A stretch of DNA of 64,000 nucleotides, taken from the sequence record PV763039.1; one strand, given 5' to 3'. The DNA comes from Escherichia phage WPEC6. The translations under genes were made by a program, and so were the position numbers. Below are positions 39,794 to 40,865 of this stretch, piece after piece (position 1 is the stretch's first letter; the number at the start of each line of letters is the position of its first letter). Below the pieces are notes generated by a model. The model saw only the letters and a program-made list of their open reading frames with translations. It ran no database searches and was not told the DNA's origin.

Positions 39794-40189
39794 ATGTGTG
39801 GATATCTTTCAGAAAGTTATTTCAAAGTGACGCATGAGGATTTAGAAAAAGCACGATTGAAACTGACAGCTATTATTGAATACTCTAATACTGTTGATCA
39901 CAGATTAAAGACTACTAAAGTATCTGTTCCTTGTTGGTTAGGTTTACGGCATAAAATAATGTCTCAACATGACCATGTTGTTCGAGAGATGCATGGTTGG
40001 TGTTGGTTTCACGATGTGGCTCTGCATTTTGGTTATATTACAGAAGAAGAGCATAGATTCTGTGAACTAACATATCGTATTCCAACCCTTCACGATTTAG
40101 ATTTGTGGAAGAAAGCAAACGAGATTTTTCTTACAGAAAGTGATTGGCGTAAAGTTATGGCTTGTCTTGAATGGAGGGGTAATGAGTAA
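39794..40189 (+). CDS. hypothetical protein
   Basis: ATG 39794 after RBS ggagg (track ORF 39776..40189). Confidence 0.5.
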   Translation: MCGYLSESYFKVTHEDLEKARLKLTAIIEYSNTVDHRLKTTKVSVPCWLGLRHKIMSQHDHVVREMHGWCWFHDVALHFGYITEEEHRFCELTYRIPTLHDLDLWKKANEIFLTESDWRKVMACLEWRGNE

Positions 40190-40865
40190 AACAGTTTTGT
40201 CTATGTTTGACGGATCTGGGATCATGGTGTTACGTTATGCCGAAGCAGGTCACAAGTGTTTTTGTGTAAACGCTGATGAAGGGGATCACGGTAAATACGA
40301 GGTTAGGATGGAGCACCCAAACATAACCTATGTGAATGCCTGGATAGATTCTACATTCAACCCTGAAGATCATGGAATACCTAAACCCGATATTATTTTT
40401 GGATTTCCACCTTGCACTATGTTAGCAGGTAGTGGTAGCAAACACGAACGCAGCACAGAGGAATTGGATGAAGCTTTAGCTAATATTCGTGTAGTGGAAG
40501 CTTTGGGTAACAAATATAATGTTCCTTGGATGATTGAGAACCCAGTAGGTAAACTTTCAACCTTATGGCGTAAACCCGATTTTTACTTTGATCCTTATGA
40601 GTATGGTGGGTATTTGTTTGAAGAGGAAGGAAGCTTTCATCCTAAAATGCCTACCCGTGATGGGTATACAAAGAAAACTTGTATTTGGCACGGCAATGGT
40701 TTTGTTCAACCAGTGAAGAAACCAGTAGATCATATAGGCTGCTTCTGGGGTTGGAAAAGCTTAGGTGGAGCTAGTGCAAAAACAAAACAACTTAGATCAC
40801 TAACCGCACGTGGTTTTGCTCGTGCAGTGTTTTTGTCTAACAATCTTCTAGATAAGGAGAAATAA
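40182..40865 (+). CDS. short C5-cytosine methyltransferase-like protein
   Basis: FDGSG (motif I), GFPPC (motif IV), IENPVG (ENV motif VI) in only about 228 aa; ATG 40182 after RBS ggagggg. Confidence 0.5.
   Translation: MSKTVLSMFDGSGIMVLRYAEAGHKCFCVNADEGDHGKYEVRMEHPNITYVNAWIDSTFNPEDHGIPKPDIIFGFPPCTMLAGSGSKHERSTEELDEALANIRVVEALGNKYNVPWMIENPVGKLSTLWRKPDFYFDPYEYGGYLFEEEGSFHPKMPTRDGYTKKTCIWHGNGFVQPVKKPVDHIGCFWGWKSLGGASAKTKQLRSLTARGFARAVFLSNNLLDKEK

Follow-up and report, generated by a model that had tools for sequence, protein, structure and literature searches.

The short Dcm-like gene of Escherichia phage WPEC6 is an ordinary form of a widespread compact phage family of cytosine-C5 methyltransferases

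The characterised relative of the gene described here is the 'Dcm' of the Drexlerviridae phage K42, which was reported as the trigger of the retron Ec86/Eco1 (Wang et al., bioRxiv 10.1101/2023.08.16.553469; published in Cell Rep 2024, 43:114857). Phage K42 is 95.4% identical to the BASEL phage KarlJaspers/Bas06, its Ec86 escapers all disrupt the 711-bp 'Dcm' gene, and K42 Dcm expressed alone is toxic only with Ec86 present (bioRxiv 10.1101/2023.08.16.553469). In the LC-MS analysis of purified msDNA, 5mC was high with the wild-type K42 Dcm but low both with the empty vector and with the C82A/E128A/K175A/K176A mutant, and this quadruple mutant, in which all four residues were changed together, was inactive. 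The activity was obtained in vivo, by over-expression and with no partner from its own phage, and the model of the enzyme was superposed on DNMT3A by the authors of the study. Its CCWGG specificity was assumed from the host Dcm and not mapped, only CC-dinucleotide mutants of msDNA being tried (bioRxiv 10.1101/2023.08.16.553469). The host of these experiments was the K-12 strain MG1655, in which Ec86 does not trigger itself (bioRxiv 10.1101/2023.08.16.553469). K-12 carries Dcm. Because the 5mC of msDNA rises well above the vector control in K-12, where Ec86 is not self-triggered, the phage enzyme appears to do something that host Dcm does not, which could be another cytosine, another context or another efficiency on msDNA. 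In KarlJaspers (MZ501090, an accession taken from the BASEL supplement) the gene is bas06_0055, which is 711 bp long, is annotated as 'Dcm-like C5 cytosine methyltransferase' and lies on the minus strand (L002:40090-40797).

Three other groups of C5-methyltransferases serve for comparison. The canonical type II enzymes (M.HhaI, M.HaeIII and E. coli Dcm; PF00145) are about 100 residues longer than the protein studied here and have a small recognition domain, and their motifs PCQ (IV), ENV (VI) and RxR (VIII) are replaced in the phage protein by PPCT, ENP and KK. The closest solved relative is the catalytic domain of DNMT3A/DNMT3B, which has a short recognition loop and shares 13-20% sequence identity; the DNMT3 enzymes act as dimers or tetramers, recognise CpG and have PWWP and ADD domains for regulation. 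The C5-methyltransferases of TET/CmoX-pathway phages are of the PF00145 type, about 330 aa long and equipped with recognition domains, and they are found beside TET, glycosyltransferase or Cx-SAM genes (PMC8256090; PMC12783734). A link of the present gene to TET/CmoX hypermodification was rejected, since no dioxygenase, glycosyltransferase or Cx-SAM gene lies nearby and the methyltransferases of those pathways are of the PF00145 type. An orthologue of E. coli Dcm was rejected as well, there being no significant PF00145 match and no vsr-like neighbour; by sequence comparison, the protein is not orthologous to host Dcm despite its name 'Dcm'.

The window, i.e., the whole stretch of DNA that was analysed, comprises 64,000 nucleotides of Escherichia phage WPEC6 (PV763039.1), and its features are collected in Table 1. 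The ORF list and the sequence gave a methyltransferase-like ORF of 684 nt, which encodes 227 aa and a stop codon. A GGAGG ribosome-binding site was read at 40173-40177 (+), 4 nt 5' of the ATG, which overlaps the end of the upstream ORF (39794..40189) by 8 nt, while the stop codon overlaps the ATG of the downstream ORF (40865..41518) by 1 nt. The start was placed at the ATG at 40182, rather than at an upstream GTG at 40140, because the alignment of the homologues begins at the same Met-Ser-Lys. The first-pass annotation had described the motifs FDGSG, GFPPC and ENPVG within about 228 aa, and all three were indeed found at exact positions in the 227-aa protein. At the motif VIII position, Lys164 and Lys165 stand where the canonical motif (QxRxR) has arginines, and a functional part of these lysines is suggested only by the K175A/K176A changes in the quadruple mutant of K42 Dcm. 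The conserved C-terminal segment resembles motif IX (RxLTxRExARLQGF) by sequence and occupies the place of the motif X helix, and its assignment to motif IX or X is provisional; no clear motif X (GNxV) was recognisable in the 227-aa protein.

Table 1. Coordinates of the predicted methyltransferase gene, its motifs and the signals around its gene unit in the window
Feature	Position	Strand	Basis
Predicted Dcm-like compact DNA cytosine-C5 methyltransferase gene	40182..40865	+	phrog_757, Bas06 Dcm homology, AlphaFold2 model, C5-methyltransferase fold
Motif I FDGSG, residues 9-13, S-adenosylmethionine-binding loop	40206..40220	+	Aligned to M.HhaI FAGLGG and matching the M.HaeIII motif
Motif IV GFPPC, residues 74-78	40401..40415	+	Aligned to PC81Q of M.HhaI
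Cys78 codon, predicted catalytic nucleophile	40413-40415	+	Corresponds to C82 of K42 Dcm
Motif VI ENPVG, residues 119-123; Glu119 equivalent to the ENV glutamate	40536..40550	+	Corresponds to E128 of K42 Dcm
YTKKT, residues 162-166, at the motif VIII position	40665..40679	+	Corresponds to K175/K176 of K42 Dcm; starts the predicted strand 166-171
Conserved C-terminal segment TKQLRSLTARGFARAV, residues 201-216, inside the last helix (199-220)	40782..40829	+	Conservation and predicted secondary structure
Terminator-like hairpin and T-run, 3' of the 217-aa ORF	41534..41558	+	11-bp stem with 6 G-C pairs
Promoter-like site TTGACA-17-TAAACT, which would start the four-gene unit	38792..38820	+	Consensus scan; weak, the promoter-like total being no higher than in shuffles

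The protein matched phrog_757 'DNA methyltransferase' with an E value of 1.8e-84, residues 1-225 being aligned to profile positions 13-223 of 247. The Pfam model PF00145 gave 11.6 bits on residues 4-92 only (E 0.18), which is below the gathering score of 22 bits, the NCBIfam scan of the 227-aa protein gave no match, and in a Pfam scan of 97 family members only one of the 97 reached E 0.01 for PF00145. Weak matches of the N-terminal half were obtained with M.HaeIII (E 0.08), with MTase_II and DruM of PADLOC (1e-4 to 4e-3) and with phrog_363 (E 5e-4). The hhalign comparison of a 32-member alignment with M.HhaI (the sequence used is identical to PDB 10mh_A) aligned motifs I to IV at E 0.006 and placed C78 on C81. 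The 97-member alignment gave a spurious 20-column match to M.HhaI only, because it was inflated by inteins and extensions, and the 32-homologue profile, which was too narrow, found nothing useful among the PDB sequences.

The family is large and compact. A word-indexed search returned 870 clusters (90% identity), of which the best 120 were 210-267 aa long and 60-99% identical to the window protein. With the exhaustive profile search, the number of representative clusters (50% identity) was 1874 at E <= 0.001 and 755 at <= 1e-10; of the 150 best representatives, almost every full-length match had 200-260 aa. A tblastn search of 50,697 phage records detected the compact methyltransferase family in 1487 (about 3%). 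Among the phages that carry it are Drexlerviridae (with Webervirus and Hanrivervirus), Vequintavirus, Seunavirus PVP-SE1, Krischvirus (RB49-like), the P1-like D6 and a Xanthomonas jumbo phage, and the bacterial copies examined (Salmonella, Bdellovibrio) were prophage-borne. The 1.9-kb stretch around the gene was 100% identical in the Escherichia phages WPEC1, WPEC2 and WPEC4 and at least 99.5% identical in ESCO13, anhysbys, Schickermooser and others. These relatives of the WPEC/ESCO13 type all belong to Phapecoctavirus (Stephanstirmvirinae; phAPEC8-like E. coli myophages of about 150 kb), in which the ORF is labelled in GenBank as 'DNA methyltransferase', 'Dcm', 'DNA methylase' or 'putative site-specific DNA methylase'. 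Across the whole family the annotation is inconsistent ('hypothetical protein' in many records, 'Dcm' in others), because Pfam PF00145 and NCBIfam miss the family. The gene represents the usual form of a compact phage cytosine-C5 methyltransferase family that is widespread, has been annotated before and is characterised in part, and is in this sense already known; its shortness is the norm of the family and no sign of a split or decayed gene.

The comparison with the characterised relative was made through Bas06 Dcm (236 aa), which aligns with the window protein from end to end at 50% identity (E 1e-71). In the pairwise alignment, the exact counterparts of C82, E128, K175 and K176 of K42 Dcm are C78, E119, K164 and K165 of the window protein. 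The two proteins share family and architecture, and in both cases the gene is an orphan among small phage ORFs of unknown function; they differ in that the former belongs to a Drexlerviridae siphovirus and the latter to a Stephanstirmvirinae myovirus, with different neighbours. Retron sensing and 5mC deposition have been demonstrated for K42 Dcm only. Judged from the alignments, the window protein is clearly a member of a family in which one enzyme has been demonstrated to methylate DNA at C5 of cytosine in vivo without a partner from its own phage.

The conservation was examined in a close alignment of 32 homologues (60-74% identity) and in a diverse alignment of 97 representatives down to about 32% identity. 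The close alignment has 47 invariant columns, which include D10, G11, S12, G13, F75, P76, C78, T79, E119, N120, P121 and G123 in motifs I, IV and VI, Y162, K164 and T166 at the motif VIII position, and T201, K202, L204, R205, S206, T208, G211, A215 and V216 in the C-terminal segment. Among the 97 diverse members, E119, P121 and Y162 are invariant, and F75, P76, C78, N120, K164 and T166 are at least 90% conserved. On this conservation, the motif occurrences are not chance matches.

Two unusual family members outside the window were also seen. In P0255 (548 aa), an intein with Hint and LAGLIDADG homing-endonuclease domains is inserted precisely at the catalytic cysteine of motif IV, with the junctions ...FGFPP / CFTGDT...IVHN / CTNLSVSGARWF. 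Inteins typically sit at functionally essential sites. As the intein of P0255 is placed exactly at the catalytic cysteine, the +1 extein cysteine is the methyltransferase nucleophile. The second, P0214 (348 aa), has a C-terminal HNH_2 endonuclease domain (PF13391, E 5.9e-8) and is a methyltransferase-nuclease fusion.

A catalytically inert protein that binds DNA or SAM, e.g., as a decoy or a SAM sponge, would agree with the scores under the thresholds of the curated methyltransferase models and with the atypical motifs VIII and X. However, the catalytic residues are kept (invariant or at least 90%) across more than 90 diverse members, one member is interrupted by an intein right at the catalytic cysteine, as is common where a site is functionally essential, and the active K42 homologue has the same residues, whose mutation abolishes function. 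Such an inert binder is very improbable.

The AlphaFold2 model, which was built on the 32-sequence alignment, had a mean pLDDT of 84.6 and a pTM of 0.85, and showed the alternating strand-helix order of a class-I methyltransferase. The strand 166-171 at the motif VIII position is followed in the model by about 30 residues (172-198) and then by the terminal helix 199-220, so that the distance from motif VIII to the C-terminus is 62 residues versus about 162 in M.HhaI. The best 50 Foldseek matches of the model were all of the DNMT3 family, with E of about 1e-7 and probability 1.00. From the strand-helix order, the short region after motif VIII and the DNMT3 matches, the modelled protein is a C5-methyltransferase catalytic domain in which the recognition (small) domain is essentially deleted. 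Motif I, the Pro-Cys of motif IV, the glutamate of motif VI and the catalytic-domain fold of the PF00145 superfamily are all present, whereas the separate target-recognition domain of the PF00145 type between motifs VIII and IX is absent. The remark that the ORF is too short for a catalytic plus a target-recognition domain is borne out by the model, in which only about 30 residues separate the motif VIII strand from the terminal helix.

The gene lies in a four-ORF unit composed of 38851..39792 (DUF7277/DUF7275), 39794..40189 (131 aa), the methyltransferase ORF and 40865..41518 (217 aa), and a consensus scan showed that the unit is bounded by terminator-like hairpins at 38769-38786 and 41534-41558 (+). 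Because they sit between two terminator-like hairpins behind a promoter-like site, the four ORFs are probably co-transcribed. A strong promoter-like site, TTGACA-18-TATAGT, was also found at 41490-41519 (+), just 5' of the closing terminator, and the N-terminus of the DUF7277/DUF7275 protein looks nucleotidyltransferase-like (GS...DxD motif).

It had been proposed earlier that the short ORF could be a minimal enzyme, one part of a split enzyme or a related enzyme that does not methylate DNA. A split enzyme would mean that the 227-aa catalytic subunit needs the product of 39794..40189 or of 40865..41518 as its DNA-recognition subunit. The three ORFs are translationally coupled by the 8-nt and 1-nt overlaps in one apparent four-gene unit, the 227-aa protein has no recognition domain, and both flanking ORFs are of unknown function, all of which would suit such an arrangement. 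Overlapping starts and stops are, however, common and routine in phage gene blocks. Of the phage records, 118 contain the upstream 131-aa ORF (phrog_16551) and 149 contain the downstream 217-aa ORF (phrog_8514), versus 1487 with the methyltransferase. The surroundings of homologues outside the WPEC6 group were compared by tblastn at eight loci, those of KarlJaspers, Vequintavirus nimi, PVP-SE1, a Krischvirus, Webervirus VAC4, a Bdellovibrio prophage and two Salmonella prophages that closely resemble each other; the methyltransferase was found there at 48-63% identity and none of the five neighbouring window proteins, the two flanking ORFs included. Expression of the K42 homologue by itself is sufficient for activity (bioRxiv 10.1101/2023.08.16.553469). 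Since the neighbours are lineage-specific and K42 Dcm is active alone, an obligate partner was rejected, and a split enzyme is regarded as extremely unlikely; the minimal enzyme is the part of the earlier proposal that stands, in line with a compact family in which 200-260 aa is the norm. A restriction-enzyme partner was also rejected, as none was found in the window or around the Salmonella and Bdellovibrio prophage copies.

Several other genes of the region and of related loci deserve mention. Just 3' of the unit, 42047..42862 (+) encodes a Sir2-family protein (PF02146, E 1.9e-22; phrog_2162), i.e., an NAD-dependent enzyme, and the Sir2 gene is followed by a small ORF at 42906..43178 (+), for which the ESCO13 label is 'Sir2-like protein'. 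Another methyltransferase-like ORF of unusual shortness (169 aa), with an NPPF motif, is located at 33256..33765 (+). Its product matches phrog_799 'DNA methyltransferase' (E 2e-59) at profile positions 206-373 of 458 only, carries the ESCO13 label 'DNA methyltransferase', and gave no match to Pfam and none to PDB sequences. The same co-directional block contains a truncated 'histidyl-tRNA synthetase'-like ORF at 34454..35044 (+) (phrog_4806) and a DprA-like ORF at 36416..37021 (+) (phrog_768). In PVP-SE1, gene 10 (L004:4261-4866), which lies beside the methyltransferase homologue, encodes a concanavalin-A-like lectin/glucanase domain (PF13385, E 9e-15); its record likens both gene 10 and the methyltransferase homologue to RB49p189, and the note on gene 10 appears to be wrong.

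Our preferred reading, to which we assign a probability of about 0.8 on the sequence comparisons and the model, is that the ORF encodes a stand-alone orphan SAM-dependent DNA cytosine-C5 methyltransferase of the compact phage 'Dcm-like' family (PHROG 757), which would consist essentially of the Rossmann-type catalytic domain. The large target-recognition domain would be replaced by the roughly 30 residues between the motif VIII strand and the last helix. On the chemistry of C5-methyltransferases, SAM would be held by F9-G13 and Asn30, which is found at the motif II position, where the active K42/Bas06 enzyme also has Asn. Cys78 would attack C6 of a flipped-out cytosine, Glu119 would protonate N3, Lys164 and Lys165 may stand in for the arginines of motif VIII, and SAM would donate the methyl group to the cytosine. 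The DNA may be contacted by the flexible loop after Cys78 (residues 81-90, pLDDT 59), by the invariant segment 124-146 (KLSTLWRKPDxYFDPYEYGG) and by the conserved basic and aromatic segment 172-205, which overlaps the stretch 186-210 (FWGWKxLGGxSxKTKQLRSLTPRG). By analogy with the DNMT3 enzymes, a dimer or oligomer on DNA is plausible.

The position of the gene in a dense co-directional block of small ORFs, mostly of unknown function, suggests that it is probably expressed early. As in the general role of phage orphan methyltransferases, the enzyme would methylate phage DNA and accessible host DNA and thereby blunt cytosine-sensitive restriction. The same activity may be sensed by the retron Ec86/Eco1 as a side effect, such sensing being known for the K42 homologue only. 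The BASEL study tested restriction-modification systems of types I, II and III and called the Vequintavirinae and their relatives, Phapecoctavirus included, 'exceptionally susceptible' to them (PMC8594841). Therefore the gene gives no broad protection, and any protection would be narrow.

This bears on the question of what the enzyme methylates. The main substrate might be something other than double-stranded DNA, i.e., single-stranded or hairpin DNA, RNA (tRNA, as for DNMT2) or a free nucleotide, and the methylation of msDNA would then be a side activity. The protein lacks a recognition domain, a homologue has been demonstrated to act on one substrate only, namely the stem-loop of the small DNA-RNA hybrid known as retron msDNA, the sequence is at least 60% identical among the best 120 of 870 clusters across unrelated phages, as expected for a conserved target, and no restriction protection is evident in related phages (PMC8594841). 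On the other hand, the closest structures are all DNA methyltransferases, the single catalytic cysteine in a PC motif together with ENV is of the DNA/DNMT2 type and unlike the two-cysteine RNA m5C (NSUN/Fmu) type, and the demonstrated product of a homologue is 5-methyl-deoxycytidine in DNA. We consider such a substrate unlikely, and a DNA cytosine-C5 methyltransferase remains the preferred reading.

As for the sequence that such a DNA methyltransferase would recognise, CCWGG occurs in the window about as often as expected (68 observed versus 61.7 +/- 7.5 expected), which is uninformative on specificity, and the literature on methylomes or specificity of the family in Phapecoctavirus, Drexlerviridae and other phages contained only genome descriptions that repeat the annotation. 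It is conceivable, though only as a tentative proposal, that 'Dcm', with its CCWGG target, is the wrong name for the compact family and that the family reads a very short motif or a DNA structure (hairpin, single-stranded), possibly as a DNMT3-like oligomer. Such a specificity would explain why the 5mC of msDNA rises on over-expression even in a dcm-plus host, why host Dcm does not trigger retron Ec86, and why no obvious protection is seen against the common restriction systems tested.

For this window the consequences are small, the gene being a correctly annotated, widespread phage orphan methyltransferase. For the family, it is of some interest that about 3% of sequenced phages carry an enzyme of a group that neither Pfam PF00145 nor NCBIfam detects, and if the reading of a short motif or of a DNA structure is true, the family would be a distinct minimal class of C5-methyltransferases that is still missing from both resources. 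The sequence methylated by the family determines which restriction systems are evaded and why the retron Ec86/Eco1 can use the enzyme as a signal of infection.
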